From contig JACPIO010000025.1 in assembly GCA_016188075.1 (NCBI GenBank), forward strand, positions 3,579 to 67,578: a DNA stretch of 64,000 bases, given 5' to 3'. This document shows positions 8,395-62,260 of the stretch, in pieces (position 1 is the stretch's first letter; each line of letters opens with the position of its first letter). The position numbers were made by a program, and so were the translations under genes. The notes beneath the pieces were generated by a model. It searched no databases and was not told the DNA's origin. It saw nothing but the letters and a program-made list of their open reading frames with translations. The stretch comes from Candidatus Wolfebacteria bacterium. GTDB lineage: Bacteria; Patescibacteriota; Minisyncoccia; UBA6257; UBA9933.

Positions 8395-9405
8395 ATGCAC
8401 CAACCGGTTCTTTTAAAAGAAACAATAGCTTTACTGGATCCGAAGCCCGGAGAATTCATTATTGATGGAACAATTGGTTCGGGCGGCCACGCAGCTAAAA
8501 TTTTTGAGAAAATTTTACCTCAAGGTAAATTGATTGGTATAGATTTAGATAAAGATAATCTTAAAAAAACAGAATCAAAAATTTTAGCTGAAATCAAAAA
8601 TGAAAAAGACCCGCCGGGGAGCGCAGCAGTAAAGATTAAAAATAATTTAATTCTGATTCAGGGAAATTACGCGGACTTACCGGAAATTCTTCAAAGCGCG
8701 GAACTACGCGGACTAAACGCAGACAAACGCGGAAAAAGAAAAGTTGATGGGTTATTACTCGATTTGGGGATGTCGTCGGAGCAGATAGAGCGGTCGGGAA
8801 GGGGGTTCAGTTTTTTGAGAAACGAGAAGTTAGACATGAGATATAACCATGAAGCAGGAAGCATGAATCATGAAGCATGGGCGACGGCAGGGGAAGTAAT
8901 AAATCGATTAAGTGAGAAGGAGTTGGCGGAGATTTTTTGGAAATACGGGGAGGAAAGATATTCGCGGCGGATCGCTAAGGGAATAGTAGAAAGTAGAAAG
9001 AGAATGGCGATTAAAACAACATTTGATCTGGTTCGCATCATAAGAAAATCAGCGCCAAAAAGTTATGAGAAGGGGCGTATACATCCGGCCACCAGAATTT
9101 TTCAGGCGCTTCGAATATATATAAACGACGAGTTGGGAAACTTAGAAAGATTGTTGAAAAATGCGCCTAATATTTTAAAAAGTGGCGGCCGGGCAGTAAT
9201 AATTTCTTTTCATTCGCTCGAGGATCGGTTAGTGAAAAATTATTTTAGAGAGATGAAAAAAGAAGGAAAAGCGGAGATTTTGACAAAAAAACCCATTATG
9301 GCTACGAGAGAAGAGGTGAAATTGAATCCTCGGTCTCGCTCCGCCAAACTTAGGGCAATAAAATTTAATTATTCTACGAAATTCGTAGACGATCGGCGAC
9401 CATGA
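8395..9405 (+). CDS. rsmH: 16S rRNA m4C1402 methyltransferase RsmH (MraW), with a low-complexity in-frame insert
   Basis: MHQPVLLKE...DGTIGSGGHA SAM-binding motif; ~25 aa longer than typical; insert SAELRGLNADKRGKRK is encoded by the ACGCGGA array at 8665-8738. Confidence 0.85.
   Translation: MHQPVLLKETIALLDPKPGEFIIDGTIGSGGHAAKIFEKILPQGKLIGIDLDKDNLKKTESKILAEIKNEKDPPGSAAVKIKNNLILIQGNYADLPEILQSAELRGLNADKRGKRKVDGLLLDLGMSSEQIERSGRGFSFLRNEKLDMRYNHEAGSMNHEAWATAGEVINRLSEKELAEIFWKYGEERYSRRIAKGIVESRKRMAIKTTFDLVRIIRKSAPKSYEKGRIHPATRIFQALRIYINDELGNLERLLKNAPNILKSGGRAVIISFHSLEDRLVKNYFREMKKEGKAEILTKKPIMATREEVKLNPRSRSAKLRAIKFNYSTKFVDDRRP
8665..8738. repeat. ACGCGGA-type periodic array inside rsmH coding sequence
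   Basis: units attacgcggactta, agcgcggaact, acgcggactaa, acgcagacaa, acgcggaaaa. Confidence 0.6.
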
Positions 9406-9692
9406 CTATCGTTCAACCCAATAAAAATAATTTAACAAAATTGAATCTAACCATCGGCGGTATGGCGCTTGTTTTGGTTTCCATTATTTTCGGAGGAGTA
9501 TTCGCTTATAACGACGTTGTTGATTTCCGGCACGAATTGAGTCGTGTGAAGACGGAGCTCGGCCGCGTCGAAGTGCAAAACGCGGAATTAAAAAATAGTT
9601 TTTATAAAATCGTGGATGCCGGAAAACTGGAAAAGCTGGCTCTAAGCGGCGGGCTGATTTTGGATAAGAATCCCCAGTATTTCGGGCGCTAA
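9402..9692 (+). CDS. FtsL-like cell-division protein (TM + coiled coil)
   Basis: 96 aa; single TM then coiled coil; positioned between rsmH and ftsI as in dcw clusters. Confidence 0.5.
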   Translation: MTIVQPNKNNLTKLNLTIGGMALVLVSIIFGGVFAYNDVVDFRHELSRVKTELGRVEVQNAELKNSFYKIVDAGKLEKLALSGGLILDKNPQYFGR

Positions 9693-9709
9693 AAAACGAA
9701 TAAAAAATT

Positions 9710-11395
9710 ATGACAGGGAATTGGAGAGTGGCGAGTTTAATTATCATCTTTAGCCTTATCTATTCTTTTTTAATTTTTAATATTTACAATCTCCAGTTCG
9801 AAAAGAGAGTTTACTATTTGAGTTTGGCGGAAGCGCGGGATGAAGCCGGCGGAGTCTTGAAAGCCGAGCGGGGAAATATTTATTTTACCGATAAAAACGG
9901 CACTGCCATTCAGGCGGTTTTGAACAAAGAATATCCGATAATTTACGCCGTCCCCGCTGAAGTTCAGAGAAACGCCGATCAACGCGGATTCGGAACGCGG
10001 ATTTACGCGGAGCAATTAGAAACGATATTGGGTATCTCTGCTTCCGAATTAGAAAAAAAATTAGTTAAACCGAATGACGAATATGAACTTCTTGTCGAGA
10101 AAGCAACCGCCGAGCAGGTGGCGGCGATGAAGAGGTTGGATATTAAGGGTATCTATGTCAAAAATGAATTGCTTCGATTTTATCCCTTTGGCGATTTGGC
10201 GGCGCATCTTTTGGGTTTTGTTTCGCCGGCGAGCGACAAAGAAGACTCGCCTTCCGGGGAGGCGGAGTTTGGTCGGTACGGAGTCGAACTTTATTTTAAT
10301 AAGTTTTTAGCCGGACAGAACGGAACGCTTAAGGACGATAAACTGATTGAATCCGAAAAAGGAAAAGATTTGTTTTTGACGATTGATCGGAGTATCCAAT
10401 CCGAAGCCGAAGAAATTCTGAAAAATTTGGTTCAAGAAAAAGAAGCGGAGGCAGGGACGGTCATCGTCGAAGAGCCGAAAACCGGGAAAATTTTGGCCAT
10501 GGCTAATTTTCCCAATTTTGATCCAAATAATTATTCCGGATTTGGGGTGGGTAAATTTTTAAATCCGGCCACGGAGGCGGTTTACGAACCGGGTTCGATT
10601 TTTAAGATATTCACGATGGCCGCCGGCATTGACAGCGGGAAAATTACGCCGGAGACGGAATACACGGATACCGGCAGCGTTACTTTTAACGGGAAAACAA
10701 TAAAAAACTGGGATTTGAAAGCGCACGGCAGGCAAACCATGACCGGCGTGATTGAGCAATCCATAAACACCGGCGCGGTTTTTGCCGAAAGAAAAACCGG
10801 TCATGATATTTTTTATACTTACTTGAATAAATTCGGGTTAAGCGAGCCGACTAAAATTCAGTTGCCCGGAGAAGTGTCGGGCAATCTTAAGAATCTAAAA
10901 AACGGCCGCGACATTGATTTTGCAACGGCCTCTTTTGGCCAGGGAGTTGCCGTTACGCCGATTGAATTGGTGAACGCCGCCTCCGTCGTAGCCAATGGAG
11001 GGCTTCTTATGAGACCTTACATCTTGAAAAATGAAGAGCCGAAAGTAGTGCGCCGAGTTTTAAAAGAAGAGACCAGTCGAGCTGTTCGAGAAATGATGAC
11101 TTCGGCAGTTGTAAAAAACAAATTGGCGGCCATTCCCAATTATAACGTGGCTGGGAAAACCGGAACCGCTTTTGTGCCGGATTTCAAACGCGGCGGATAT
11201 ACCGATGAAGTTATAAACACCTACATTGGTTTTGCTCCGGCTTCGGATCCCCGTTTTATAATTTCCGTAAAGTTGGAAAAGCCGGCCGGTAGTCCTTTGG
11301 CTGGCCAGACCGTGGTGCCGGCTTTCCGGGCGCTCGCCGAATTTATTTTGAATTACTACAATATACCGCCGGATAAATTAGACCAACATCAATGA
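9710..11395 (+). CDS. ftsI: peptidoglycan transpeptidase FtsI / PBP
   Basis: 561 aa; SxxK (GSIFKIF), SxN (SINTGAV) and KTG(T) motifs. Confidence 0.85.
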   Translation: MTGNWRVASLIIIFSLIYSFLIFNIYNLQFEKRVYYLSLAEARDEAGGVLKAERGNIYFTDKNGTAIQAVLNKEYPIIYAVPAEVQRNADQRGFGTRIYAEQLETILGISASELEKKLVKPNDEYELLVEKATAEQVAAMKRLDIKGIYVKNELLRFYPFGDLAAHLLGFVSPASDKEDSPSGEAEFGRYGVELYFNKFLAGQNGTLKDDKLIESEKGKDLFLTIDRSIQSEAEEILKNLVQEKEAEAGTVIVEEPKTGKILAMANFPNFDPNNYSGFGVGKFLNPATEAVYEPGSIFKIFTMAAGIDSGKITPETEYTDTGSVTFNGKTIKNWDLKAHGRQTMTGVIEQSINTGAVFAERKTGHDIFYTYLNKFGLSEPTKIQLPGEVSGNLKNLKNGRDIDFATASFGQGVAVTPIELVNAASVVANGGLLMRPYILKNEEPKVVRRVLKEETSRAVREMMTSAVVKNKLAAIPNYNVAGKTGTAFVPDFKRGGYTDEVINTYIGFAPASDPRFIISVKLEKPAGSPLAGQTVVPAFRALAEFILNYYNIPPDKLDQHQ

Positions 11396-12637
11396 ACTGG
11401 TTTTTGAATAAATTGGCAAGGATTACGGTTTGGCGTTTTGAGCCGAAGATTATTGCTGTTACCGGAAGTGTCGGCAAAACCGCGACCGTGGAGAAGATCG
11501 AAGCGGTTTTGAAGCACCCGGTTTTTTTGTCAGAGAGAGATAATCGCGGTGCCACTCGCGCTCTTGGGCGATTGGCGCGATGAAGATTTAGGGCTCTTAA
11601 CTTTTAACGACTTGCCCGTCTCCCAAAAAATTAAAAAAATATTTTTTTGGACTAAGGTGATTTTAACGCCAATCATTAAATTGTTTTTTCGGCTTCGAAA
11701 AAAACATCAAGAGATTTTGATTCTCGAATACGGACTTCAGAAAAACTTGAAGATAAGAGATTTTTTGGAAATGGCCAAACCCGATATCGGAGTAGTGACG
11801 GCTGTTGGCGATATTCCGGCGCATGTCGAATTTTGGAGCGGCCCTTGGGCAGTCGCCCGAGAAAAGTCAAAAGTGGTTGAATGCCTCGACTCCGATGGTT
11901 TTGCCGTGTTGAATTTTGATGACGAGGCGGTTTTGGAGATGAAAAAGCGAACAAGGGCTAGAATCATTACTTTTGGTTTTGGCCCAGGGGCGGATGTAAG
12001 AATTATGAATTTTGAAAATCAATTCGAGAATCCCGAGTCCTACGGAATCAATTTTAAGATTGGCTACGGCGGGAGCGTGGTGCCGGTCAAGCTTCGTAAT
12101 GTTTTCGGCAAGGCCGAAGCGTATGCCGCCTCCGCGGCAGTTTGCATTGGTTTGATTTTTGATTTGAACTTGGTTGAAATTGCCGAAGCCTTGCAAAGTT
12201 CGCATTCCCTTTATTCCGGCAAGAGGATTTTAAAAGGAGTCAAAGAAACGGTGATTATTGAAGATTTGAGCGATGTTTCGCCTTTGTCAATGGATGAAGC
12301 CATTCATGTTTTGGGAGAATTTAGAGACCGAAGGAAAATCGCGGTTTTGGGAGATATGCTTGATTTGGGTAAGTGGAGCATTGAAGCTCACGAAGCCATC
12401 GGCCGGCTCACGTCCACGACCGTTGATCTTTTGTTTACGGTCGGGCCCCGGGGAAAATTAATAGCCGAGGGAGCCCGAGAAGGGGGTCTATTCAAAAATA
12501 AAATTTTAAGCTACGATACTTCGGTCGAGGCTGGAAGAAAACTTCAAGATTTATTAAAGAAAGGGGACGCGGTTTTGATAACCGGAGCCAGAGAGTTGAG
12601 AATGGGAGAGGTGGTGGAAGAAGTAAAAAGTAATTAG
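11392..12637 (+). CDS. murF: Mur ligase, MurF-like, interrupted by a frameshift at a T7 homopolymer (11522-11528)
   Basis: ORF 11392-11583 carries the P-loop TGSVGKTAT; reading continues in another frame from about 11511 (…EIIAVPLALL… then Mur middle/C-terminal domains, LGDMLDLG); the two frames overlap across the T7 run. Confidence 0.65.
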
Positions 12638-12660
12638 TAATTGGTAATTAGGATTAATTA
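12631..12660. repeat. 8-bp periodic AT-rich array (taattagtaattggtaattaggattaatta)
   Basis: related arrays at 59908-59970 and, reverse-complemented, at 23831-23855. Confidence 0.5.
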
Positions 12661-12712
12661 CTATGGCGCTTTCGTCTAGTGGTCAAGTCCCGATGTAGTC
12701 AAAAATTTATGC

Positions 12713-12785
12713 GCCGCCATCGTCTAGTGGCCTAGGACACTAGGTTCTCATCCTAGAAACCGGGGTTCGATTCCCCGTGGCGGTA
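12713..12785 (+). tRNA. tRNA-Glu (anticodon CUC)
   Basis: cloverleaf: acceptor gccgcca/tggcggt, D-arm tcgtctagtggcctaggac, anticodon loop ttCTCat, T-arm cgggg-ttcgatt-ccccg; matches bacterial tRNA-Glu. Confidence 0.85.
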
Positions 12786-12845
12786 CATAAATTTTTGATA
12801 CTACATCGAGGATCCTCGATACGACATCAAAATTAAAATTTTGGT

Positions 12846-15118: not shown

Positions 15119-15140
15119 CGAGTGGCTATAGCGGTGAGAA

Positions 15141-15252
15141 CCCAGCACATATCTCACCCTAAGACGTGGTTATACCACCTAAGGAAGGCGATAGCCGACT
15201 TCGTCTACCAGAAGAGGTAATACCCCAAGCAGTGATCGAGATATGTGCTGGG
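15141..15252. mobile_element. ~110-bp element with perfect 15-bp terminal inverted repeats (cccagcacatatctc / gagatatgtgctggg) between atpH and atpA
   Basis: TIRs at 15141-15155 and 15238-15252; TIR sequence related to the 7244-7444 element (shared cacat(a)tctc core). Confidence 0.5.
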
Positions 15253-15315
15253 TGCTCAAATTTATAATTAAATTTATTTAAGGTAAAAAAATATAGAAAT
15301 TTAAATAAATTTGGC

Positions 15316-17764: not shown

Positions 17765-17787
17765 ATTAACCAACAACCAACAACTAA

Positions 17788-19206
<1,419 letters not shown>

Positions 19207-19214
19207 CGTGAAAT

Positions 19215-19454
19215 ATGAATCTAAAAATTATTTCTCTAAAGGGAGCGCAATTTGAAGGCGAGGTGGTCGGTTTCAATGTTAAAACCGCGGCTGGGGAAAT
19301 TACGATTTTGGATCATCATCGGCCGATTATTTCCTCCCTGATTTTGGGCGCGGCGGTCATCATCGGGAAAGACGAGAATCGTCAAGCAATGCCCATTAAG
19401 TCCGGTTTTTTAGAGATGGACAAAAAAAATAATTTAACCGTCCTTATTGATTGA
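19215..19454 (+). CDS. atpC: F0F1 ATP synthase subunit epsilon (N-terminal beta-sandwich domain only)
   Basis: 79 aa; operon position. Confidence 0.7.
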   Translation: MNLKIISLKGAQFEGEVVGFNVKTAAGEITILDHHRPIISSLILGAAVIIGKDENRQAMPIKSGFLEMDKKNNLTVLID

Positions 19455-20445: not shown

Positions 20446-20525
20446 TAAGCAGTTAGAATCTAGAATTTAGTATTTAGGGGGCGGGGATTAGATTCCTAAC
20501 TCCTAAATACTAACTCCTAACTACT

Positions 20526-20843
20526 ATGGGTTTTGCAATCATTCAAACTGGCGGGAAGCAATATAAAGTATCTCCGGGGCAAAAAATTAGAATAGAAAAA
20601 GTTGAACCTAACGAAGAGGGGAATTTTGTCTTTGATAAAGTTCTTTTGGTTGCGGAGCAAGACGGAGAGGTTAAAATCGGCACGCCGTATGTTTCGGGCG
20701 CGAAGGTCGAGGGAAAAGTTTTAAAACAGGGGAGAGATAAAAAGAAAATTATTTTCCGCTATCATTCGAAAACGCGCTATCGAAAAAAGAAAGGGCATAG
20801 GCAGCCGTTTACGGAAGTCCTGGTTGACAAAATTAAGGGTTAA
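20526..20843 (+). CDS. rplU: 50S ribosomal protein L21
   Basis: MGFAIIQTGGKQYKVSPGQKIRIEK. Confidence 0.9.
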   Translation: MGFAIIQTGGKQYKVSPGQKIRIEKVEPNEEGNFVFDKVLLVAEQDGEVKIGTPYVSGAKVEGKVLKQGRDKKKIIFRYHSKTRYRKKKGHRQPFTEVLVDKIKG

Positions 20844-20924
20844 AAGTAGAATTCCGGAAATAAGTTCGGAGGGTTTATTGGTTATCGAAGATCGAGAAAA
20901 GAATAGAATAATCTATCTTTTTCT

Positions 20925-21580
20925 TGCTCCTTGAGTAAGTTGTAAAGAGTGTGCCGCAAACATGCACCATAGGGGATCGCGCTGGCACGTCAGTCGCGAG
21001 AGGTTCGAATCCTCATGCATGGGGTTTGCTGTCTCGGTGTGGTGATCGTGGAAGGAGCCCATGCGTAAGGCGCTTTCGAAGGGGAAAGGTCTTTTTCCCT
21101 CGCTAGAGCCGGATTGGGTCTTTAAACCACGAAGTCTCACATCGTCCGTTCCCTCCGCTGTCCCAGGAAACTGGGGAGATTAGAGGGGTAATAAGACAGT
21201 AGGCCTGCGGCACGCTACTAAAATATCCGGCGCAATCAATGTGCCGAGAGAAGTCCGCGCCGAGGTGGGTCGGCCGCTCGCGATGCCAGCAGGAAGTAGT
21301 AGCGGCAGTCGCTGCGGTTGCGGCGCCCGATCGAGAGCTTCGCGCTCTCCGAGGCGTCGATACGGTCCCGCGCGCGGGCACGCAGGAGTGGACCACCTTG
21401 CCTTCCAAAAAGGTGAGGTGCCTGCAGGGGACTAGATACCCCCACCGGCCAACGACGACGGCCGTACCGCCACAAGGGCGGGTCGGGCTGGCGTCCGGGC
21501 TTCTTCCGGCGCCTCCCATGCGTCTCACAGCACACCAAGGCCTGATGGTAGTTCACCCATCAGGCCCACCTTTTTTAACA
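20925..21580 (+). ncRNA. ~650-nt GC-rich highly structured RNA of unknown class, ending in tandem intrinsic terminators
   Basis: sharp GC island; overlapping Arg/Ala-rich nonsense ORFs on both strands; T-loop-like GGTTCGAATCC at 21002-21012 followed by helix atgcatggg/cccatgcgt and TTTCGAAGGGG (permuted-tmRNA-like layout but no G3:U70); terminators at 21538-21576 and 21589-21612. Confidence 0.45.
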
Positions 21581-21781
21581 GTTGATTTGCCCCTCACGGG
21601 CGTTTTTTATTTTCGTTTAGATTTCGAGGTTGATTTTTCGATATCGTACCCCCACACCAAATGTGGATAATAATTTGGCGTTGGGCAGACTGGATTCAAA
21701 CTTTCTCAATTTAATGGGTTTATCAGGCAAATTTTAAATTTCTACTAAACCAATCCACATTTGGTGTGGGGGTAAAAGATT

Positions 21782-22771: not shown

Positions 22772-23965
22772 ATGAAATTTTTAAATTCGTTGGAGAAAAA
22801 AAGTCTTGCTGGCGAGATTTGTCTTTTGCGGATGGATTTGGATATTGAAAACACGGACTTACGCGGACTTAACGCTGACTCACACAGACAATTGCCATTC
22901 AGATTAGAAGCGGCTTTGCCGACAATTAAATTTTTGCTCGAAAGAAAAACCAAGGTGGTAATCTTGTCTCATCGCGGTAGGCCGCGGTCTGGGATATACG
23001 CGGATAGACGCAGAAAAGAATTCTCCCTGAAGCCGTTTGTGAAGATTTTAGCGTCCTTATTGAAACGCCCCATCTATTTTATCGATTTTAAAAATCTTAC
23101 GAGGCTTAGCCTCGTAAGATTGAAAAATGTTGTTAGAGACTCCGCCCCGGGCGCTATTTTTCTTTTGGAAAATTTAAGATTTTTGAAGGGTGAAATGGAA
23201 AACGACAAAAAATTCGCGAAACAATTGGCGTCGCTGGGAAGTTTTTACGTAAACGATGCTTTCGGCGTCAGTCATCGGGCGAACGCTTCAGTCGAAGCCA
23301 TTACTCATTTTTTGCCTTCATACGCCGGTTTGCACATGGAAAAAGAATTAGAAAAACTGAATGGGTTGACGAAAAAAGCGAAACGGCCATTCGTGATTAT
23401 TCTCGGCGGTTCGAAAACTCACGATAAACTGCCGCTTATAAAAAATTTATGGAATAAAGCGGATTATTTTCTTTTGGGCGGCGGGGTTGCCAATACTTTT
23501 TTCGCGGCTCAAGGATTGCTGATCGGAGATTCCTTGCGTGGAGACAGCGCGGAACTGCGCGGAATACTGCGCGGAATTACGCGGAAAGAATTATCACGAA
23601 AAGTTATCTTGCCAGTTGATGTTGCGATTAAGGATAGAAAAATTTTGGATATCGGACCGAAAACAGTTAAAAGATTCGGCGAAATTATAAAGAAAGCGAA
23701 AACGATTATTTGGAACGGGCCAATGGGATTGATTGAGGATCCGCGATTTGCCAAGGGTTCGGCGGAGGTGGCACGATTTATTTCTCAAAGCCGCGCTTTC
23801 TCTGTTGTTGGTGGAGGAGAAACTACCTCTCTAATTACCAATTACCAATTACCAATTACCAAAAGAAATATTTTTCTTTCTACCGGCGGCGGCGCGATGC
23901 TCGAATATCTGGCGGGCAAGAAATTACCGGGCATAGAGGTGTTGAAAAAGTCTACTGTCGACTGA
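22772..23965 (+). CDS. pgk: phosphoglycerate kinase carrying in-frame repeat-derived segments
   Basis: ILSHRGRP, FYVNDAFGVSHRANAS, GGGVANTF and STGGGAMLEY motifs; ATG at 22772 (the track ORF from 22706 overlaps tRNA-Gly); 10-aa insert NLTRLSLVRL from the 29-bp palindrome. Confidence 0.85.
   Translation: MKFLNSLEKKSLAGEICLLRMDLDIENTDLRGLNADSHRQLPFRLEAALPTIKFLLERKTKVVILSHRGRPRSGIYADRRRKEFSLKPFVKILASLLKRPIYFIDFKNLTRLSLVRLKNVVRDSAPGAIFLLENLRFLKGEMENDKKFAKQLASLGSFYVNDAFGVSHRANASVEAITHFLPSYAGLHMEKELEKLNGLTKKAKRPFVIILGGSKTHDKLPLIKNLWNKADYFLLGGGVANTFFAAQGLLIGDSLRGDSAELRGILRGITRKELSRKVILPVDVAIKDRKILDIGPKTVKRFGEIIKKAKTIIWNGPMGLIEDPRFAKGSAEVARFISQSRAFSVVGGGETTSLITNYQLPITKRNIFLSTGGGAMLEYLAGKKLPGIEVLKKSTVD
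22851..22885. repeat. ACGCGGA-type array inside pgk (encodes TDLRGLNADSH)
   Basis: units acacggactt, acgcggactta, acgctgactc. Confidence 0.5.
23093..23121. repeat. palindromic element copy 3 (aatcttacgaggc-tta-gcctcgtaagatt) in-frame inside pgk
   Basis: 13-bp arms; about 10 extra residues relative to E. coli Pgk at this position. Confidence 0.75.
23545..23590. repeat. ACGCGGA-type array inside pgk (encodes SAELRGILRGITRKE)
   Basis: gcgcggaact, gcgcggaatact, gcgcggaattac, gcggaaag. Confidence 0.6.
23831..23855. repeat. ccaattac x3 tandem repeat inside pgk (encodes ITNYQLPIT)
   Basis: reverse complement of the taattggtaatt family at 12631-12660. Confidence 0.5.
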
Positions 23966-26394: not shown

Positions 26395-26491
26395 CTTTTA
26401 TCATTGACTTTTTAATTTTTTTCTTATACCCTGTATTTAATCGGCAAGTCAGGCGATTACTGTCGTGCCTCACTATCGTTCGGCGCAAAAA

Positions 26492-26572
26492 AATACGAAT
26501 TTAACACGAAAAATACGAATGCCACGAATAAATTGATTCGTATCATTCGTGTAATTTCGTAGATTCGTATTA
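26492..26572. repeat. palindromic TACGAA/TTCGTA periodic array inserted in the P3 stem-loop of RNase P RNA
   Basis: lies between P3 strands gtcgtgcctc (26463-26472) and gaggcacga (26593-26601), making P3 about 135 nt. Confidence 0.6.
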
Positions 26573-26816
26573 TGTAAGTGGCGAGCGGCAGCGAGGCACG
26601 ATGGAGGAAAGTCCGGACACTCTCCCGATGAAAATCGGGATAAACAAGTAGCGGCTAACAGCCGTCGTCCAGCTTAGCGGGATAGAGGTGCGAGCAGTGA
26701 CGTCCCGAGACGAAAGTCGAGGGAGAGCCCGATCCCAAGCTTGACGGCTTAACTCTGCGATAGGGATAAGAAAGCAGAGGTGAAACGGCTAAATCCTTAC
26801 TGGGTGCAAGGTTGTG

Positions 26817-26844
26817 CCGAGCACATAACGCTTTATGTGCTCGG
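26817..26844. repeat. palindrome ccgagcacataacgc-tttatgtgctcgg inside rnpB (second copy at 56353-56380)
   Basis: near-identical 28-bp hairpin upstream of rpmA. Confidence 0.6.
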
Positions 26845-27009
26845 AATACCGCTAGAGCCTAAGAGTAATCGACGGCCCAGATAAATTATCGCCACCCCCC
26901 ACCACTTTTGAAAAAAAGTGGTGGGGGGACAGAATCCGGCTTATGACTTGCCGATTTTTTGTTTGTTAAACTAATTAGTGATTTTCGCCCATTGCGCTAT
27001 AATTTAAAA

Positions 27010-40925: not shown

Positions 40926-40957
40926 AGAGCGTTTTTCGTGTAGTATTATTTAAAAAG

Positions 40958-41010
40958 ATTCCGCGACTTTCCGCGTTAAGTCCGCGAGATTCCGCGATTA
41001 ATGCGAGAGC
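40958..41010. repeat. TCCGCG-type periodic array in the kinase / pilC intergenic region
   Basis: attccgcgact, ttccgcgttaag, tccgcgagat, tccgcgattaa. Confidence 0.55.
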
Positions 41011-50834: not shown

Positions 50835-50877
50835 AACATTCTTCCAGGCGAATGAAATACATTCGCAGCGCCTTAGC

Positions 50878-50951
50878 TGGCTGCGGGGCTAGGAATCGGA
50901 CCTAGATTCCATGGTTCAGAGCCATGTTGCCTACCATTAGCAGACCCCGCA
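50878..50951 (-). tRNA. tRNA-Gln (anticodon CUG), CCA encoded
   Basis: minus-strand reading: tgcgggg-tc-tgc-taatggtag-gca-a-catgg-ctCTGaa-ccatg-gaat-ctagg-tccgatt-cctag-ccccgca-g-cca; the T-loop deviates slightly (TCCGATT). Confidence 0.7.
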
Positions 50952-50998
50952 AATAATATAACCAATAACTAACAACATACAACCTACAACAAGTTAAA

Positions 50999-52144
50999 TC
51001 ACATTTCAACGGGTTTCCCGCCTTCAATCTGAATTTTTTTCAATTTCAACACCGACGCGCGAGTCGGTGCTCCGACTCCTTCGGGACGTCGGAGTTTTCC
51101 GTTAATTAATTCCGCCTCCAAAATTTTTATTCTTTGAGGTCCACCCTTCGACGGGCTCAGGGTAAATACTCCTGGTTCGGGATTTAAAGCCCGAATTTTC
51201 CGCTCTATTTGAATCGCGATTTCTCCGCCCTCGCTCCGCGCGTTTTCTAAATCCGCTGGTTCAATAAAAGCATCTTCAGTTTTGAATTTTTTGGTATAGG
51301 TGGCTCGCGATTCGTCTTGGGGTGTGAGGTTCAATCTCCCAAATATTGACTCTAATTCATGAGGAGATTGAACCTCCCGAAATTGATTCAAAAATTCCAC
51401 CAGTAAATCGCCGCCCAATTCCGCCAATTTCCGCATTAGCGATTCATAATTCATAATTCCTAATTCATAATTCTCAAGCGCTTTTTGCGCGAGAACTGGT
51501 CCGTGATCCACTTTTTCATCCATTAAAAAAAGCGTTACGCCGGTTTCTTTTTCGCCGTTCAAAATCGCGGACTGAATAGGGGAGGGGCCGCGGTATTTTG
51601 GCAAGAGCGACGGATGAATTCCGATTGAGCCGAGCCGCGGAATCTCCAAAATTTCTTTGGGAAGAATTTTCGCGTAAGCGGCAACTACAAAGAAATCATA
51701 TTCCCGATATAATAAATTTGCCGTGGGTCCGGAATGGTTCGGGTTCGGGATTGACACCCGAGACCCCGGGGCTCGATTCCCCGCGGATCCACGGTCTTCT
51801 GATTTATCCACAAGGGGGCTTGACAACTGGTCATCGTTTAATATACTAATGTTAGGTGTCAATCCCGGATTTCTCGAATCATTCGAGGTTTCGGCAAAAG
51901 CCCCGTTTAAAGCGGGGTTTTTGGTTTTTAAATTTTCTGGTTGCCAAACCGGGATATCGTATTTTTGAGCAATAATTTTGGTAGGGGGTGATGTCAGTAT
52001 CTTTTTTCTTCCCACTGGCCGGTCGGGATTGCAAACAACCACTCCCGGCGCGAAACCGGCTTTAATCAATCTCTCCAAAATAATGGCGGCGAACTCAGGA
52101 GTACCGAAGAATACGAAATTTGGATTACGAAAATACGAAATCAT
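50999..52144 (-). CDS. fmt: methionyl-tRNA formyltransferase carrying two in-frame inserts
   Basis: FGTPEFA, HPSLLPKYRG, C-terminal domain; 381 aa versus about 315; about 65-aa GC-rich insert between the VWQP and VVAAYAKIL blocks (DNA 51721-51925); ENYELGIMNYES encoded by the 8-bp array. Confidence 0.85.
   Translation of the reverse strand: MISYFRNPNFVFFGTPEFAAIILERLIKAGFAPGVVVCNPDRPVGRKKILTSPPTKIIAQKYDIPVWQPENLKTKNPALNGAFAETSNDSRNPGLTPNISILNDDQLSSPLVDKSEDRGSAGNRAPGSRVSIPNPNHSGPTANLLYREYDFFVVAAYAKILPKEILEIPRLGSIGIHPSLLPKYRGPSPIQSAILNGEKETGVTLFLMDEKVDHGPVLAQKALENYELGIMNYESLMRKLAELGGDLLVEFLNQFREVQSPHELESIFGRLNLTPQDESRATYTKKFKTEDAFIEPADLENARSEGGEIAIQIERKIRALNPEPGVFTLSPSKGGPQRIKILEAELINGKLRRPEGVGAPTRASVLKLKKIQIEGGKPVEM
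51442..51473. repeat. 8-bp periodic array (attcataattcataattcctaattcataattc) in-frame in fmt
   Basis: same family as 19166-19206. Confidence 0.6.
51721..51925. mobile_element. ~200-bp GC-rich MITE-like element inserted in-frame in fmt, containing a plus-strand tRNA-like fold and 12-bp inverted repeats
   Basis: IR gggattgacacc (51747-51758) / ggtgtcaatccc (51855-51866); tRNA-like at 51725-51791 (acceptor gggtccg/cggatcc, anticodon arm tcggg-attgaca-cccga, T-arm cgggg-ctcgatt-ccccg, no D-arm); hairpin + T-run ccccgtttaaagcggggttttt at 51901-51922. Confidence 0.55.
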
Positions 52145-52160
52145 ACGAAAAATACGAAAT
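52110..52160. repeat. TACGAA periodic array at one end of the GxxExxY unit (overlaps the fmt N-terminus)
   Basis: atacgaaat, ttacgaaaa, tacgaaatca, tacgaaaaa, tacgaaatt. Confidence 0.6.
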
Positions 52161-52570
52161 TATTTTATATTGACTACTCTTTTAAATTTTACTCCTGATT
52201 TTGTAAATCTAGCTAGTATTCCTAATTTTAAATTCGTTGATTTTAAATAATTATAAATTTGCTCTATGTCTTTTTTACTAAAAACATTTCCTTGTTTAAT
52301 TTCTAAAACTATCTTTCCTTCAATTAAAAAATCTAAATAAATTGTTGTAATAAAATTATTTCTATAATTTATTCTAATTGGTAGTTCTTTTTCGTAATTA
52401 ATATTGGATTTTTTAAAGGCAATTTCTATGGCTTTTTGATATTGATTTTCTTTATAGCCAAAACCCAATTCTAAAAATACATCAAAAAGAACACCAATTA
52501 TCTGATAACTAAGTTCAGGATATAGTAAATCGGGGTTGTAAACTTTATTGTTTTTCGTACTTTCGTACAT
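52160..52570 (-). CDS. free-standing GxxExxY / PD-(D/E)XK nuclease-like protein
   Basis: LSYQIIGVLFDVFLELGFGYKENQYQKAIEIAF ... DFLIEGKIVLEIK; inserted between def and fmt. Confidence 0.7.
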   Translation of the reverse strand: MYESTKNNKVYNPDLLYPELSYQIIGVLFDVFLELGFGYKENQYQKAIEIAFKKSNINYEKELPIRINYRNNFITTIYLDFLIEGKIVLEIKQGNVFSKKDIEQIYNYLKSTNLKLGILARFTKSGVKFKRVVNIK

Positions 52571-53099
52571 TTTCGTACTTTCGTAAGTTCTTACATTTAT
52601 CGATGTACAAAATTCCATTTAGGTGGTCTACTTCATGTTGAAAAACTTTAGCCAAAAGTCCCCAGGCTTTGATTTTGATTTTTTTAGCGTTTTTATCCTG
52701 GCCGACAAGAGTAATTTTTTCCGGGCGTTCCACGTCGCCGTAATATCCTCCGGGCACGCTTAAGCAACCTTCTTCCATTAAGGTTTTTTTATCGGAGGTT
52801 TTTATTATTTTCGGATTAAAAATAGCGTAAAACTTCTGGTCTTCCGAGGTCACTGAATTAGCGCTTCGTCGCGAGGTGGCCCTTACTTGCGCCACAAATA
52901 CTCGCATATCAAGGCCGATTTGATTGGCAGCTAATCCGATCCCATCCGCCTCAATCATTTTCTCTTTCATTTCTTTTACCATCGCATTAATTTCTTTCTT
53001 GCTATATTTAGTAAAATCAAAATTCGCCGTCTGCCTGCGCAAAAATTTTTCTTCTGCCTTGTTATCTCTTGTTAAAATTTTTAAATTTTGATTTGGCAT
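52545..53099 (-). CDS. def: peptide deformylase
   Basis: GIGLAANQIG, EGCLSVPG, HEVDHLNG; start taken at MPNQ (53099); the track ORF extends to 53177 through a repeat-rich region. Confidence 0.85.
   Translation of the reverse strand: MPNQNLKILTRDNKAEEKFLRRQTANFDFTKYSKKEINAMVKEMKEKMIEADGIGLAANQIGLDMRVFVAQVRATSRRSANSVTSEDQKFYAIFNPKIIKTSDKKTLMEEGCLSVPGGYYGDVERPEKITLVGQDKNAKKIKIKAWGLLAKVFQHEVDHLNGILYIDKCKNLRKYENVRKYEKQ
52553..52590. repeat. TTCGTA periodic array at the other end of the GxxExxY unit (inverted orientation)
   Basis: ttcgtactttcgtacattttcgtactttcgtaag. Confidence 0.6.
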
Positions 53100-53436
53100 T
53101 TTTTCGTACTTTCGCCCGCCTCGCCGACTCGACCTCCGTAGCCACTTCGGCGAAGGAAGCAGCCTTCGGCGTAGCACGGGTATATTTTCGCACTTTCGTA
53201 AGTAGTGTCATGAAGTACGCTCCTTTATTGCTCACATTTTTTCTGTCGGAAACATCTCGCGCCAATTCCAATAGTTTTTGCTGGTCTTTTTCTTTGGCTA
53301 ATTTGATATAGAGCGATTTATGTTTTTCGTCGTTCAAAAGTTGGCTAATCAAAAGTCCGGTTAATTGATATTTCCGATAAACCCGACTCTTCTTGGCGCG
53401 CTCTTTAAGGGTTTCGATGTAACCTGTTTTTTCCAT
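53062..53436 (-). CDS. hypothetical basic protein
   Basis: 124 aa; overlaps the def start; contains a GC-rich segment flanked by TTCGTA units. Confidence 0.35.
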   Translation of the reverse strand: MEKTGYIETLKERAKKSRVYRKYQLTGLLISQLLNDEKHKSLYIKLAKEKDQQKLLELARDVSDRKNVSNKGAYFMTLLTKVRKYTRATPKAASFAEVATEVESARRAKVRKNAKSKFKNFNKR

Positions 53437-54118: not shown

Positions 54119-54295
54119 TGAAGAAGCGGCTTTTTGTCGCGATCAATCTGCCTCAAGATACGAAAGAAGAAATTGAAAAGATTCTTCCAATATATCGAGG
54201 TTCAACCTCGATAGGTTCAACCTCGATATATTGCAACCTCGATATATTGCAGTATCAAGTCATCGCAAGCTCGACATTTGGCAATAAATAAAATA
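54119..54295 (+). pseudogene. possible 5' remnant of a 2'-5' RNA ligase (ThpR/LigT-like) gene, disrupted by tandem repeats
   Basis: MKKRLFVAINLPQDTKEEIEKILP then three tandem caacctcgatat-type units (54192-54252) and a stop. Confidence 0.3.
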
Positions 54296-54323: not shown

Positions 54324-55559
54324 ATGGAAAAATTTACCAAGAAAAAAATTATCCTGATTGGATTTTCGATCGTCTTAGTTGTCGGGTTCGTCGTCGGTTC
54401 TTTTTATTTCGGCTACGAAACCGGCAGAAAAAAACCTTATCGGATTGAGGTTCAGGGAGTGTCTAATTTGGAAAAAGGAAAAGCCCAGGATGTGGATTTC
54501 GGACTTTTTTGGGAAGTCTGGAAAAGATTGAAAGAAAAATACGTTGACCCTGCGAAGACCGGCAGTAATCAGGATTTGGTTTATGGCGCCATCTCCGGGC
54601 TTTTGGGATCGCTTAAGGATCCCAATACGGTTTTTTTCCCGCCGTCGGACGCGAAAAAATTCGGCGAAGATATCAGCGGCCAGTTTTCCGGTATTGGCGC
54701 CGAGATAGGAATGCGGAACGACCAGCTGGTTATTATCGCGCCCCTTAAAGACACGCCAGCCGAACGGGCCGGCCTGCGCTCCGGCGACAAAATTTTGAAA
54801 ATCGACGAAACTCAGACCGGGGGCATAACCGTTGACGAAGCGGTAAAATTGATAAGAGGCAAGGAAAGCACGGTTGTCGCTTTGACGATTTTGCGCAACG
54901 GCTGGGATAAGTCCAAAGAAATAAAAATAACCAGAGGAGTGATTCAGGTGCCGACTCTGGATTTTGAAATGAAAACCGACGGCATTGCCTATATCCATTT
55001 ATATAATTTCTACGAAAAATCCGTTCCGCTTTTTTACGAGGCTGTTTTTAAGATGGCCAAAGAGAATCCGCGGGGCTTGATTCTTGATTTGCGCGATAAT
55101 CCCGGCGGCTATCTTCAGGCGGCGGTTGATTTGGCCGGCTGGTTTTTGGAATCCGGAGAGGTGGTCGTGAAAGAAGAATTCCGTTCTGATCCGGAACAAG
55201 TTTTTAAGGCCCAACGTTCCGGAATTTTCAAAAATCTGCCGATGGTTATTTTGGTCAATCAAGGGTCGGCTTCGGCTTCGGAAATTTTAGCCGGCGCCCT
55301 TCACGACAATCGCGCCATAAAACTTATCGGTAAAAAAACTTTCGGCAAAGGGACGGTGCAGGAACTCGAAGAGCTGCCGGATAATTCTTTGCTTAAAATA
55401 ACCATTGCTCACTGGCGGCTTCCCGGCGGCCAGCTTATCGAAAAAAATGGCATTGCGCCGGATTATGAAGTTGATTTGAGTGACGAAGATGTAAAGAATA
55501 AAAAGGATCCGCAATTGGAGAAAGCGATGGAAATTTTGAAATCAGAGATTTCAAAATAA
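54324..55559 (+). CDS. ctpA: C-terminal processing (S41) peptidase with PDZ domain
   Basis: PDZ GLRSGDKILKID; S41 motifs LILDLRDNPGG and GSASASEILAGAL. Confidence 0.85.
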   Translation: MEKFTKKKIILIGFSIVLVVGFVVGSFYFGYETGRKKPYRIEVQGVSNLEKGKAQDVDFGLFWEVWKRLKEKYVDPAKTGSNQDLVYGAISGLLGSLKDPNTVFFPPSDAKKFGEDISGQFSGIGAEIGMRNDQLVIIAPLKDTPAERAGLRSGDKILKIDETQTGGITVDEAVKLIRGKESTVVALTILRNGWDKSKEIKITRGVIQVPTLDFEMKTDGIAYIHLYNFYEKSVPLFYEAVFKMAKENPRGLILDLRDNPGGYLQAAVDLAGWFLESGEVVVKEEFRSDPEQVFKAQRSGIFKNLPMVILVNQGSASASEILAGALHDNRAIKLIGKKTFGKGTVQELEELPDNSLLKITIAHWRLPGGQLIEKNGIAPDYEVDLSDEDVKNKKDPQLEKAMEILKSEISK

Positions 55560-57143: not shown

Positions 57144-57498
57144 TTTCTAATTAACCTAATTGACCTAAAAAATGACCAATTTGCAAAATCCCAAGAAATA
57201 CGATTTAGAAGAAAGAACTGCTAAATTTTATGGAGAATATTAAAGCTTGGCTATCAGAACATCGCAGGGACATCATTCTCTTTCTTTTGGTATTTTTAAT
57301 TAGTTCTTTAAGTTTCGGCTTGGGTTATTTGGTTAACCGCGAATTTAACCACGCCCCGATTGTGATAACCCAATGCGAATCTACGAATTGATGCGAATCC
57401 CTTGTGTTTCTTATAACGATTTGTTATTTTGAAATCAGCGAGGAAATGCGCTCGCGGCGTTTTTCCCTTGACTTGGGAATAAGGAGAAAGGAGGCAGT

Positions 57499-59172: not shown

Positions 59173-59910
59173 GTGGGAAGTATGGAAGGTGAAGAGATGG
59201 TCGCTGCCAAAAAAGATTATCTTTTGCCGGCCAGTATTGTGGTGGCCGCCCTTTTAGTTGCCGGCGCCTGGGTTTATACCGCCGGATTAAAAAATGTAAA
59301 TCCGAACGGCGCCGTAAATCAACCCATTGCCCAGCCGACGCCCGAAAATGATTCCGGAATAAACATTTTGCCAATATCCGCGAATGATCACCTTCTGGGT
59401 AATCCGAACGCGCCGGTTAAAATTGTCGAATTTTCCGATTTGGAATGCCCGTTTTGCAAAAGTTTTCATCCAACTATGAAGCAAATCTTGGCCGATTACG
59501 GCGGCAAAGTGGCTTGGGTTTACCGGCATTTCCCTTTGGACCAGCTTCATCCGAAAGCGAGAAAAGAAGCTGAAGCGTCCGAATGCGCCAATGAGCTTGG
59601 CGGCAATGAAAAATTCTGGGCTTATATTGACCGGGTATTTGAAGTGACGCCGTCCAATAATGGTCTTGATCTGGCCCAGTTGCCGAAAATCGCCGAAGAC
59701 ATCGGCTTAAATAAAGTTCAGTTTCAAGCTTGTTTAGAAAGCGGAAAGTATAAAAACGCGGTCCAGGCAAACGTGGATGACGCGGTGTCCGCTGGCGGCC
59801 GCGGCACTCCGTATAGTGTGGTTCTTACTCCGAACAACAAAAAAATTCCGTTAAACGGCGCTCTGCCTTTGGCTCAAGTGAGATTAATAATTGATGAGGC
59901 GTTGCGATAA
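59173..59910 (+). CDS. DsbA-family thiol:disulfide oxidoreductase (membrane-anchored)
   Basis: CPFC active site; thioredoxin fold; N-terminal TM. Confidence 0.75.
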   Translation: MGSMEGEEMVAAKKDYLLPASIVVAALLVAGAWVYTAGLKNVNPNGAVNQPIAQPTPENDSGINILPISANDHLLGNPNAPVKIVEFSDLECPFCKSFHPTMKQILADYGGKVAWVYRHFPLDQLHPKARKEAEASECANELGGNEKFWAYIDRVFEVTPSNNGLDLAQLPKIAEDIGLNKVQFQACLESGKYKNAVQANVDDAVSAGGRGTPYSVVLTPNNKKIPLNGALPLAQVRLIIDEALR

Positions 59911-59970
59911 TTCGTAATTAGTAACTGGTAATTAGTAATTGGAATTAGTTTTTCTAATTATAATTTTTTT
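59908..59970. repeat. 8-bp periodic AT-rich array (taattcgtaattagtaactggtaattagtaattggaattag...)
   Basis: same family as 12631-12660. Confidence 0.5.
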
Positions 59971-61011: not shown

Positions 61012-61042
61012 CCGTGCTAATAAATAAGCACGGCTGATTTTT
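61012..61042 (+). terminator. intrinsic terminator after rmuC
   Basis: ccgtgct-aataaat-aagcacgg followed by T-run. Confidence 0.6.
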
Positions 61043-61140
61043 AGCCGGGTGCACTTTGACTCTTCAGAGTCAACCCTGAGGAAGCTCGAATGGGTTGAAT
61101 TTTAGTCTCCGGATTACCGGAGATCAGGGGAGGGGGAAGC

Positions 61141-61669: not shown

Positions 61670-61794
61670 CCCTCCTTTTTTGCCCCCACACCAAACGAGA
61701 AGACACGCTTTCTCGTTATGGTGTGGGGGCTTGACAAATTTTTCAAGCTTCGTATAGAATAGGCTGTCGATAAAGAAAGGTCAAAGTTAAAGTA

Positions 61795-61880
61795 TCGATG
61801 CGAATATACGAATTATACTAATGATACGAATTTTATTCGTATAATTCGTACATTTGTATATTGGTATCGATACGCGCGAA
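61795..61880. promoter_or_regulatory. palindromic TACGAA/TTCGTA array upstream of groES (candidate operator; no CIRCE present)
   Basis: perfect IR tacgaattatac (61807-61818) / gtataattcgta (61839-61850) plus flanking gtatcgat repeats. Confidence 0.45.
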
Positions 61881-61885
61881 GCGAT

Positions 61886-62176
61886 ATGAATTTTAAACCG
61901 CTTTCTAATCATATTTTTCTCGAGCCGGTGGAGGAGGAAAAAACCACTAAATCCGGCATTGTGCTTCCGGAGACCGCCGAGAAAGAAAAACCCATTAAGG
62001 GCAGGGTCATCGCGGTTGGTCCGGGAAAGTTGAACGAAAAAGGCGAACGCATGCAGATGTCCGTCAAGGTCGGCGATATGGTTTTATTCAAAAAATACGG
62101 ACCCGACGAAATCGAAATTGAAGCAAAGAAATATTTAGTCGGAGACGAAGAAGATATACTTGCGATAATCGAGTAA
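61886..62176 (+). CDS. groES: co-chaperonin GroES
   Basis: 96 aa; GIVLPE, mobile loop, KVGD. Confidence 0.9.
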   Translation: MNFKPLSNHIFLEPVEEEKTTKSGIVLPETAEKEKPIKGRVIAVGPGKLNEKGERMQMSVKVGDMVLFKKYGPDEIEIEAKKYLVGDEEDILAIIE

Positions 62177-62180
62177 TCGC

Positions 62181-62260
62181 TCATACGAAAATACGAAAAC
62201 ATACGAAATTTCGAAAAATAAATTTTAATTTCGTACATTCGTAAAATTTCGTACTTTCGT
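62181..62260. repeat. palindromic TACGAA array in the groES-groEL spacer
   Basis: tacgaaaatacgaaaacatacgaaatttcgaaaa ... tttcgtacattcgtaaaatttcgtactttcgtaag. Confidence 0.6.

Follow-up and report, generated by a model that had tools for sequence, protein, structure and literature searches.

Short-period repeat arrays in a Candidatus Wolfebacteria genome as the probable inverted ends of small, homing-like elements related to rRNA intervening sequences

The 23S rRNA of Coxiella contains an intervening sequence (IVS) that has been called a selfish element: its terminal inverted repeats pair into a 28-bp stem, it carries an open reading frame (ORF) of a four-helix-bundle family with tandem heptameric repeats upstream of the ORF, and it is excised by RNase III (PMC4990558). 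More than 25 years after their discovery, the origin and function of rRNA IVSs "remain unclear" (PMC4990558). A survey of rRNA insertions in the Candidate Phyla Radiation (CPR) found ORFs of the 23S_rRNA_IVP family (PF05635), which it still called functionally uncharacterised, together with many short, ORF-less, uncharacterised insertions, some of which were suggested to be of the IVS type (PMC11270868). Here, we analyzed a 64,000-nt stretch of a Candidatus Wolfebacteria genome (Patescibacteria/CPR; contig JACPIO010000025.1, positions 3,579 to 67,578; hereafter the window), in which arrays of short repeated units recur in gene spacers, in the RNase P RNA gene, and in frame within protein genes. 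Our analysis suggests that these arrays are probably the terminal inverted repeats of small, foldback-type selfish elements that are related to IVSs and spread in a homing-like manner driven by a nuclease of the GxxExxY family. On present evidence, an IVS-like, homing-like system is the best reading of these elements.

Several other systems resemble parts of this picture. In Drosophila foldback transposons, the terminal inverted repeats consist of short repeats in tandem and an internal ORF may be present or absent, and cyanobacterial short tandemly repeated repetitive (STRR) heptamer arrays are scattered in intergenic DNA. Rickettsia palindromic elements, which Ogata et al. are said to have described in 2000, are reportedly ~100-nt palindromes that lie in frame in housekeeping protein genes and in RNA genes. 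We know of no ORF-bearing parent of the Rickettsia elements and of no established link between the STRRs and GxxExxY or 23S_rRNA_IVP cargo. REPINs are dispersed short palindromic doublets, and the associated RAYT gene is flanked by inverted copies of the same repeats (PMC3116915). The GxxExxY family itself (PF13366/TIGR04256) was listed with the function "Unknown" in a 2012 survey of PD-(D/E)XK proteins (PMC3424549). No prior description of array-flanked GxxExxY genes, of the LepA insertion, or of in-frame CPR arrays was found in the searchable literature, which leaves out most subscription journals.

Repeat arrays and full-length elements in the window

A previous reading of the sequence without database searches (hereafter the sequence-only reading) had described arrays with a period of 8–11 bp throughout the window. 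Tandem Repeats Finder (TRF; score of at least 30) returned 73 rows, which were merged to 58 loci, compared with 14.6 ± 3.7 loci in 20 Markov-3 simulations; scores of at least 40 were reached by 24 loci in the window and by 2.45 in the simulations. TACGAA cores spaced 6–12 nt apart were observed 14 times (0.02 expected), and clustered CGCNGA cores were observed 35 times (2.0 expected). Together, TRF and the printed sequence placed arrays at essentially all of the positions given by the sequence-only reading, and their grouping into families was borne out as well. Every listed site was present, although that at 57362–57390 is a weak array of three GCGAAT/ACGAAT units that TRF did not call, and the arrays are periodic but with a real range of 7–11 nt. 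The density of arrays was similar at other CPR loci (about 9 per 10 kb). The genes named here were identified by Pfam or PDB matches (mraZ, rsmH, murF, pgk, lepA, histidine kinase, pilC, fmt, def, and DsbA-like) or, for groES, atpC, and rplU, assigned from ORF position and translation only.

It is scarcely credible that the arrays are artefacts of assembly or sequencing. Logan contigs do end at arrays, so the repeats disturb assembly; however, four independent Logan assemblies from different sequencing runs agreed at 100% identity over 2.3 kb including three arrays (window 50851–53163), which excludes an artefact for this segment. Moreover, homologous structures were found in many unrelated projects, and every host ORF stays intact.

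A search of the window for the GxxExxY motif, by which the nuclease ORFs were first located, found two such ORFs. Three ORFs of the window are flanked by inverted arrays, indicating that ORF-bearing elements have these arrays as their inverted arms. The first element, E1 (7967–8389; coordinates refer to the plus strand of the window unless stated otherwise), fills the mraZ-rsmH spacer, and its 5′ arm of three TTAGCTT units (7967–7993) is mirrored by an inverted 3′ arm of three AAGCTAA units (8363–8389). The ORF between them (8006–8371) encodes a 23S_rRNA_IVP four-helix-bundle protein, which belongs to the family by its Pfam match (PF05635, E = 1e-35; 122.5 bits against a cut-off of 33.8). The stop codon of mraZ (TAG, 7969–7971) lies inside the first arm unit.

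The second element, E2 (28029–28480), lies in frame in lepA (site 1), where four ACGCAGA/ACGCGGA units (28029–28067) and four inverted TCCGCG/TCTGCG units (28442–28480) enclose a GxxExxY PD-(D/E)XK nuclease domain (about 28070–28441; LepA aa 82–205). PF13366 was matched at LepA aa 86–199, within GTP_EFTU, and TIGR04256 was matched too; relative to Thermus EF4, the insert measures 152 aa. The third element, E3 (52112–52589, minus strand), is located between def and fmt and carries a free-standing GxxExxY nuclease. Its 5′ arm consists of four GTACGAAA units (52551–52589, minus strand), its 3′ arm of five TTTCGTA units as read on the minus strand (52112–52159), and the true start of its nuclease ORF (52160–52570, minus strand) is an ATG inside a 152-aa reading frame, giving a protein of 136 aa that is 100% identical to the NCBI entry "GxxExxY protein [Candidatus Wolfebacteria bacterium]" (P0121). 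The E3 arms overlap the C-terminus of def, the start codon of the nuclease, and the ATG of fmt at 52144; the last 15 residues of def are encoded by an arm (52545–52590).

Both nucleases of the window exceeded the cut-offs of TIGR04256 (97 and 125.6 bits, cut-off 35) and PF13366 (PDDEXK_3; 97.1 and 115.2 bits, cut-off 22). The AlphaFold2 (AF2) model of the nuclease had a predicted local distance difference test (pLDDT) score of 92 and showed a PD-(D/E)XK fold with the D...E-x-K residues. Its Foldseek neighbours were Cas4, lambda exonuclease, MGME1, Hjc resolvase, and tRNA-splicing endonuclease, with template modelling (TM) scores of about 0.45–0.53 and Cas4 among the best matches at about 0.5, and the sole sequence-level PDB match was T7 endonuclease I (E = 0.3). 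These matches reflect the generic PD-(D/E)XK fold predicted by the model, without a specific functional assignment.

The sequence-only reading had suggested that the arrays might be recognition sites for an associated nuclease. A physical tie to a nuclease does exist, but that reading missed that the arrays are the inverted arms of the nuclease gene itself, and it overlooked both the second cargo class, the 23S_rRNA_IVP protein, and the tie to rRNA IVSs. The arrays are better understood as the ends or remnants of elements than as a free-standing family of binding sites.

The elements share with rRNA IVSs (Coxiella burnetii, Leptospira; S23p ORF) the stem-forming terminal inverted repeats around an optional small ORF, and the ORF of E1 comes from the same four-helix-bundle 23S_rRNA_IVP family. 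Tandem heptamers are found in the Coxiella IVS as well, and short ORF-less versions, as well as insertion at the hairpin tips of structured RNA, are further features in common. The distribution is likewise sporadic, which for IVSs has been ascribed to horizontal transfer (PMC4990558; PMC11270868). Unlike rRNA IVSs, the copies in the window are found not in rRNA but in the spacers of operons, in RNase P RNA, and, in frame, in coding sequence; the Rfam scan found no rRNA gene in the window, so the location in a 23S (or 16S) rRNA helix that marks an IVS is lacking here. Furthermore, the GxxExxY nuclease is a second and dominant cargo, the arms consist wholly of about four repeated units, and excision by RNase III would be incompatible with in-frame coding copies.

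With Drosophila foldback transposons, the elements have in common the arms of tandem short repeats and the optional internal ORF; unlike them, foldback transposons are eukaryotic, far larger, and encode other proteins. Heptamer arrays dispersed in intergenic DNA are also a feature of the cyanobacterial STRRs. Like the Rickettsia palindromic elements, the palindromes described here are tolerated in frame as surface peptide inserts, but they have short tandem units and an ORF-bearing parent, and their lineage and sequences are different.

Several described classes were considered and rejected. REPINs and RAYTs (REPtrons) also combine dispersed palindromic doublets with a gene within inverted repeats, but the repeat-flanked gene here encodes a PD-(D/E)XK nuclease or a four-helix bundle rather than an HUH Y1 transposase, each arm is a series of units instead of one REP hairpin, and there are in-frame coding copies. 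Terminal inverted repeats and many dispersed short copies fit a terminal inverted repeat (TIR) transposon or miniature inverted-repeat transposable element (MITE), but fixed-length target-site duplications were absent in 40 loci. A transposase partner was not found either: the element ORFs matched only PF13366, PF05635, TIGR04256, and, weakly and below threshold, bAvd, and the cargo nuclease is ~130 aa long. An intein is contradicted by the lack of a Hint or intein Pfam match in LepA, by the array-encoded low-complexity junctions, and by the missing Cys/Ser...His-Asn junction residues (judged by eye). Introns of groups I and II were rejected because the Rfam scan of the window found no intron family and the ORF is continuous with the host frame, and CRISPR or TIGR guide arrays were rejected because the gaps between units (1–5 nt) are too short for guides.

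Occurrence across genomes and insertion in LepA

Species-representative genomes were scanned with an alignment of the closer GxxExxY set, as the broad alignment was too divergent, and 60 loci were obtained, of which 53 were usable. The 60 loci come from many Patescibacteria lineages, from Bacteroidota, and from one metagenome-assembled genome labelled Bdellovibrionales and one labelled Woesearchaeota; no GxxExxY homologues were found in the phage collection. A flanking inverted repeat (score of at least 36) was present at 40/53 loci, with a median length of 37 nt and 88% identity, and the median score of the flank alignment was 44 for inverted repeats compared with 18 for the direct control. 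The units are 6–7 nt long and share one orientation within an arm, which contains three to five of them and usually four; the 3′ arm had at least three units in 47/53 loci, with a mode of four. The usual spacing of units (7–8, then 10–11, then 8 nt) accounts for the period of 8–11 bp noted before. From outer end to outer end, GxxExxY elements measure ~483 bp. E3-like nucleases with the same arms occurred in different contexts, namely, between def and fmt (the window and L009) and between corA and cysS (L010). In three Bacteroidota loci (L037, L043, and L055), the 3′ side of the GxxExxY gene holds 10–14 units rather than 4, indicating that arms are able to expand into long arrays.

The arms are nearly identical inside one locus but differ between loci, and variant units (TACTAA, TACGGA, ACGCGGA, and, in L004, ACGGAC) shift on both arms together. 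This pattern bears on the idea that the arrays are binding sites for a host nucleoid or regulatory DNA-binding protein with which the nuclease is only incidentally associated. The spacing near one helical turn and the shared orientation of the units in an arm would fit such sites, but units that differ among loci and lineages and yet match between the two arms of one ORF point to element-specific ends, and arrays also occur in coding sequence and in an RNA gene; we regard this explanation as improbable. It is plausible that the arrays are recognition sites for a protein, since the unit type co-varies between both arms and with the nuclease clade.

A second survey covered 80 metagenomic loci encoding relatives of the E1 protein. 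These loci had inverted arrays of 7–8-nt units, built around a TAG core on one flank and around a CTA core on the opposite flank; the sequence of the units changed from locus to locus. The flanks had a median inverted score of 32 compared with 15 for direct repeats, and scores of at least 36 were reached by 28/73 inverted and 6/73 direct alignments.

To describe the insertion in LepA, the window protein was compared with its 120 best CPR homologues (n = 121), using metagenome contigs, distance methods, and a neighbour-joining tree for the discordance between LepA and nuclease. The nuclease was present at one and the same LepA site in 92/121 proteins, and the E and Y of the GxxExxY motif, as well as the D...E-x-K triad, were intact in 92/92 of these nucleases. 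In other LepAs the site is empty, for example, in P0039, which has VRMNWQGYILNL, and L073 provides the DNA sequence of an empty site. The presence of the nuclease required 9 changes on the LepA tree, compared with 26 when labels were shuffled. The junction peptides varied by lineage (TQTETRTDAE, NADNTQNNAE, FPRESASSPRESAQ, and ENPRLDPRESAQ), and the DNA of L001 and L002 showed that they are the same ACGCRGA/TCYGCG units read in different frames, indicating that it is the nucleotide sequence of the arms that is conserved.

Array-only inserts occupy at least four more hot-spots in LepA, where their presence took almost one change on the tree per occurrence (20/23, 20/30, 11/12, and 9/11). Where the window has an array-only insert at site 3, a full nuclease is present in P0058 and P0063; P0105 has a partial nuclease at yet another LepA site. 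Between the window and L073, the DNA of the site-3 insert was 95% identical, whereas the adjoining parts of lepA were 65% and 76% identical. The suggestion that the arrays are simply tolerated repeats is too weak to account for this identity between two genomes, or for the sharing of one LepA site by ORF-bearing and ORF-less versions in different lineages.

The history of the nuclease was decoupled from that of its host protein. The distances of LepA cores and nucleases were uncorrelated (Pearson 0.03, 4186 pairs). In P0008 and P0026, the LepA cores were 92% identical and the flanks identical, but the nuclease and arms were only 53% identical; conversely, in P0012 and P0028, the cores were 75% identical, but the nuclease, the arms, and ~60 flanking residues on each side were identical, a block that resembles a co-conversion tract. 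Taken together, these patterns from metagenome contigs and distance methods look like the signatures expected of a homing-type element. As in homing endonuclease genes, a nuclease is patchily present at one fixed position in a conserved host gene, here in the LepA G domain, its phylogeny is decoupled from that of the host, and identical nucleases with identical flanks occur in diverged hosts. Unlike homing endonuclease genes, the elements have inverted repeat arms and ORF-less derivatives, and unlike nucleases housed in inteins, the LepA nuclease stays in the mature frame between disordered linkers. In the AF2 model of the window LepA (mean pLDDT 86), the core and the nuclease domain were both confident, whereas the arm-encoded segments had a pLDDT below 50 at aa 71–80, 203–219, and 351–358 and a low score at about 455–475, suggesting that the arms are translated into disordered linkers.

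Judged by sequence comparison, the architecture of the elements, the derivation of ORF-less from ORF-bearing forms, the concerted evolution of the two arms, the spread across phyla, the presence or absence at a fixed site, and the decoupling of nuclease and host are established. The following model would account for them. The full-length form is ~480 bp long with one small ORF, encoding either a GxxExxY nuclease (with TACGAA- or ACGCRGA-type arms) or a 23S_rRNA_IVP protein (with arms of 7–8-nt units on a TAG/CTA core), and the commoner short forms are fused arms (~80-nt palindromes) or a lone arm (direct arrays). The nuclease would act as the mobility enzyme by breaking the DNA at its own arms or at empty sites, the element would spread when the break is repaired from a filled copy, and ORF-less copies would be mobilised in trans, riding along with the nuclease. 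Copies would survive only at harmless places, such as operon spacers, the tip of P3 in RNase P RNA, and protein surface loops; those in proteins would persist if they are in frame and free of stops, with the arms translated as disordered linkers. Homing by break repair fits better than cut-and-paste transposition because no target-site duplication was found.

A more specific version of this model is attractive but tentative, and we would hesitate to give it even chances: the GxxExxY nucleases may be the enzymes that move IVS-type foldback elements, each clade being specific for its own four-unit arms or for the empty target and moving ORF-less copies in trans. In this version, the lineage with ACGCRGA arms may be a "spliceless intein-like" homing element in LepA and other housekeeping proteins across Patescibacteria, adding an extra folded domain with linker arms.

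Several points weigh against the proposal that the arrays are ends of homing-like selfish elements. The whole case is one of comparative sequence analysis, and no catalytic activity is known for the 23S_rRNA_IVP cargo, so this class, at least, must depend on another agent for its movement. The lack of a target-site duplication (matches of 0–2 nt in 40 loci) speaks against classical cut-and-paste movement, although it fits homing. The insertion of a whole element does not readily account for direct-only arrays, nor for arrays that take the place of native residues with no net insertion (pgk sites 2 and 3, fmt). Because the discordant LepA/nuclease pairs were assembled from metagenomes, chimeric contigs could be behind some of them; the neighbour-joining tree has shallow resolution (mean core distance 0.43); and with the closest LepA and PGK relatives at 58–65% protein identity, a recent gain or loss was not observed directly.

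If the proposal is correct, two uncharacterised families, PF13366/TIGR04256 and PF05635, gain a testable role, and the origin of rRNA IVSs becomes approachable, as IVSs would be tied to a wider class of elements for which there is a candidate mobility enzyme. The essential genes of very small CPR genomes would carry dense selfish DNA; in the window, these are lepA, pgk, rsmH, fmt, and the RNase P RNA gene. Gene calling is affected because the elements donate start and stop codons, and protein-family alignments and phylogenomics are affected because the inserts have a history unlike that of the host gene. Assemblies break at the repeats: independent short-read contigs (L005–L008) stopped at or inside arrays (window 51393–51445 and 53162–53163), indicating that these repeats fragment CPR assemblies. 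A nuclease domain that can be inserted in host proteins via defined linkers may also be useful in protein engineering.

ORF-less palindromes and single arms

Many of the arrays had been described as palindromic, and six of them were confirmed as long hairpins with fold z-scores of −4 to −9, whereas direct-only arrays of the window showed no comparable folding. The palindromic arrays are, by their sequence, the same element without the ORF, with the two arms fused, because the palindrome between groES and groEL matches the fused E3 arms and the palindromes in lepA have 4+4 units like those of site 1. The groES-groEL element (62181–62262, minus strand; z −6.5) aligned end to end with the E3 5′ arm fused to the 3′ arm (score 100; about 85% identity, estimated from the alignment). 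In lepA, ACGCRGA/TCYGCGT palindromes of 4+4 units were found at site 2 (28835–28918, aa 340–367; z −6.3) and site 3 (29184–29265, about aa 457–480). A TACGAA/TTCGTA palindrome of 4+4 units (26492–26572) is situated at the tip of an extended P3 of the RNase P RNA, and a TACGAA-type palindrome (61795–61880; z −4.6) stops 5 nt short of the groES ATG (61886). The sixth palindrome (20453–20526; z −4.1) is of the 23S_rRNA_IVP-arm style, in which TCCTAAC/TACTAAC units come after TTAGAAT/TTAGTAT units; it runs up to the rplU ATG (20526) and resembles the arms that flank a 23S_rRNA_IVP gene in L098.

Partial palindromes were found at two further sites. Three AGTAATT units with a partial inverted AATTACT (12629–12665; z −3.0) lie at the murF stop codon, and six TAATTAG/GTAATTG units with a short inverted CTAATTA (59908–59970), which form a weak hairpin (z −1.5), extend from the stop codon of the DsbA-like gene to the start of RmuC.

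Direct-only arrays look like single arms. Within gene spacers, TTCATAA-type heptamers (7496–7535) end in the mraZ ATG, and CAACTAA heptamers (17768–17800), which resemble the 3′ arm next to L113's 23S_rRNA_IVP gene, end at the atpD ATG. An array of 8.6 mixed ACGAATT/ATGAATT heptamers (19160–19220) encodes the C-terminus and stop of atpD and supplies the atpC ATG; because it mixes both unit types, the ATGAAT heptamers can be placed with the TACGAA family. Four TCCGCG units in the spacer that separates the histidine kinase gene from pilC (40956–41001) form no hairpin (z −1.9). Across such spacers, arms adjoin the genes on either side or overlap them and thereby give the stop codons of mraZ and atpD and the start codons of atpC and fmt (52142–52144).

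This position of the arrays is one ground for supposing that they are host-beneficial cis elements, such as RNase III sites, mRNA stabilisers, terminators, or translational couplers, and that the small proteins are vertically inherited regulators. Many arrays lie exactly at gene junctions, where they give stop and start codons, an ATG was found within 40 nt beyond the outer end of the 3′ arm at 40/47 loci, and palindromic arrays fold stably; in addition, CPR bacteria have retained RNase III (PMC12641178), of which classical IVSs are substrates (PMC4990558). However, mismatches between the arms showed no G·U excess (29 G·U compared with 28 A·C), so there is no sign of selection for pairing of the sense RNA, and the inverted symmetry seems to be kept at the DNA level. 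Copies also occur in frame in proteins and in RNase P RNA, where processing would harm, the same element is found in unrelated contexts and across phyla, and the histories of nuclease and host are decoupled. A host function of this kind is therefore unlikely, although it is the least unlikely of the alternatives considered, and selfish elements with nuclease-driven spread remain the preferred explanation.

Within coding sequence, the sequence-only reading had held that arrays always preserve the frame and add residues to conserved proteins. The frame is indeed kept, but this is automatic wherever genes are intact, and the arrays add residues in rsmH, in lepA, and at pgk site 1, whereas others replace native residues with little net gain. 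Comparison with orthologues of lepA, rsmH, pgk, and fmt agreed with the view that the array-encoded segments are lineage specific; net gains were +152, +28, and about +24 aa at the three lepA sites. In rsmH, a single arm of 5–6 ACGCGGA units (8665–8738) lies in frame and adds about 25 aa relative to Thermotoga MraW, and CATGAAG heptamers (8848–8879) encode the peptide NHEAGSMNHEAW in frame, with a net gain of 7 aa. Three further ACGCGGA units (9983–10012) within the ORF at 9710–11395 form a single arm that was absent from the earlier list of sites. In fmt, ATGAATT heptamers (51442–51473, minus strand) encode ENYELGIMNYES in frame (net +2 aa).

Three arrays were found in pgk, and the GxxExxY motif was found in 0/120 PGK homologues. 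Site 1, a single arm of four ACRCGGA units (22850–22885), encodes ENTDLRGLNADSHRQ, with a net gain of about 8 aa, at a hot-spot of variable length among CPR PGKs. At site 2, a single arm of five GCGCGGA units (23535–23590) replaces a native helix (net about +4 aa). Site 3 consists of 4.3 AATTACC heptamers (23833–23862; net +0–2 aa), and in the relative P0253 the corresponding peptide is ISNFQFPISKK, which would fit an AATTTCC-like heptamer.

Lineage-specific heptamers of near-constant length at pgk site 3, as deduced from peptides, would suit microsatellite-like replication slippage in situ, by which arrays would arise unrelated to each other or to the ORFs. The variable copy number of heptamers among Coxiella strains (PMC4990558) and the 10–14 units at some Bacteroidota loci also fit slippage. 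Nevertheless, slippage does not account for the inverted two-arm layout with its conserved 4+4 count and spacing, for unit families that are common to hundreds of lineages and several reading frames, or for the 95% DNA identity of the LepA site-3 insert against 65–76% in its flanks, and we consider it very improbable as the source of the arrays.

RNase P RNA and other features of the window

The location of one array inside P3 of the RNase P RNA, as proposed by the sequence-only reading, proved correct. In the RNase P RNA gene (26440–26955), the Rfam model aligned just 26584–26959 (64.5 bits, under the gathering score), but P1 was recovered as perfect complementarity of 26440–26451 to 26944–26955. 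With this pairing located, 26461–26604 can be identified as an extended P3 of 144 nt with the TACGAA palindrome at its tip; the P3 hairpin had a fold energy of −67.5 kcal/mol (z −9.4). The elements thus explain why covariance models fail on this RNase P RNA. An Rfam scan of the whole window at the gathering threshold returned tRNAs only, and scans of its GC-rich regions by E-value gave no informative family.

Beginning 4 nt past the 3′ end of the RNase P RNA and overlapping the start of lepA, the ORF at 26959–27840 gave a borderline match to LAGLIDADG_3 (E = 1.7e-4, just below the Pfam cut-off), and it could represent a further type of homing endonuclease located nearby.

A TTTCGTA arm at 53095–53215, in the 3′ part of the ORF at 53062–53436 (minus strand), is split by a nested 64-nt GC-rich hairpin. 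The hairpin lies between unit pairs of the arm (53095–53198) and is bordered by a 20-nt direct repeat. GC-rich hairpins are similarly placed inside arms in two other genomes (L034 and L055), which suggests a second small element that targets the arms.

Between rplU and recR, ~700 nt of GC-rich sequence (20900–21600) are without a credible ORF or Rfam match; the stretch holds a T-arm-like GGTTCGAATCC, is followed by a perfect 22-nt inverted-repeat hairpin (21647–21774), and may be a structured RNA not described before. In fmt (aa 77–143, ~51715–51915), a GC-rich insert adds ~63 aa in frame; it is not built of arrays and contains a perfect 13-nt inverted repeat (51746–51758 and 51855–51867). Repeats with a period of 15–16 nt and the palindrome AGGTTCAACCTCGATATATTG at 54185–54251, upstream of the ORF at 54324–55559, differ from the other arrays and may serve as an operator or iteron-like site.

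Inverted repeats of 21–22 nt with 95% complementarity, likewise not built of arrays, enclose 269 nt upstream of the ORF at 36557 (36273–36585) and 82 nt in the atpH-atpA spacer (15135–15258). The tRNA-Glu gene (12699–12798) lies within a 21-nt inverted repeat, by which its acceptor stem is lengthened by ~14 bp on each side. The product of atpC (19215–19454) is a truncated epsilon subunit of only 79 aa. A Fic/DOC ORF (6610–6993) and an ORF of 2019 aa (245–6304) are located upstream of the dcw cluster.

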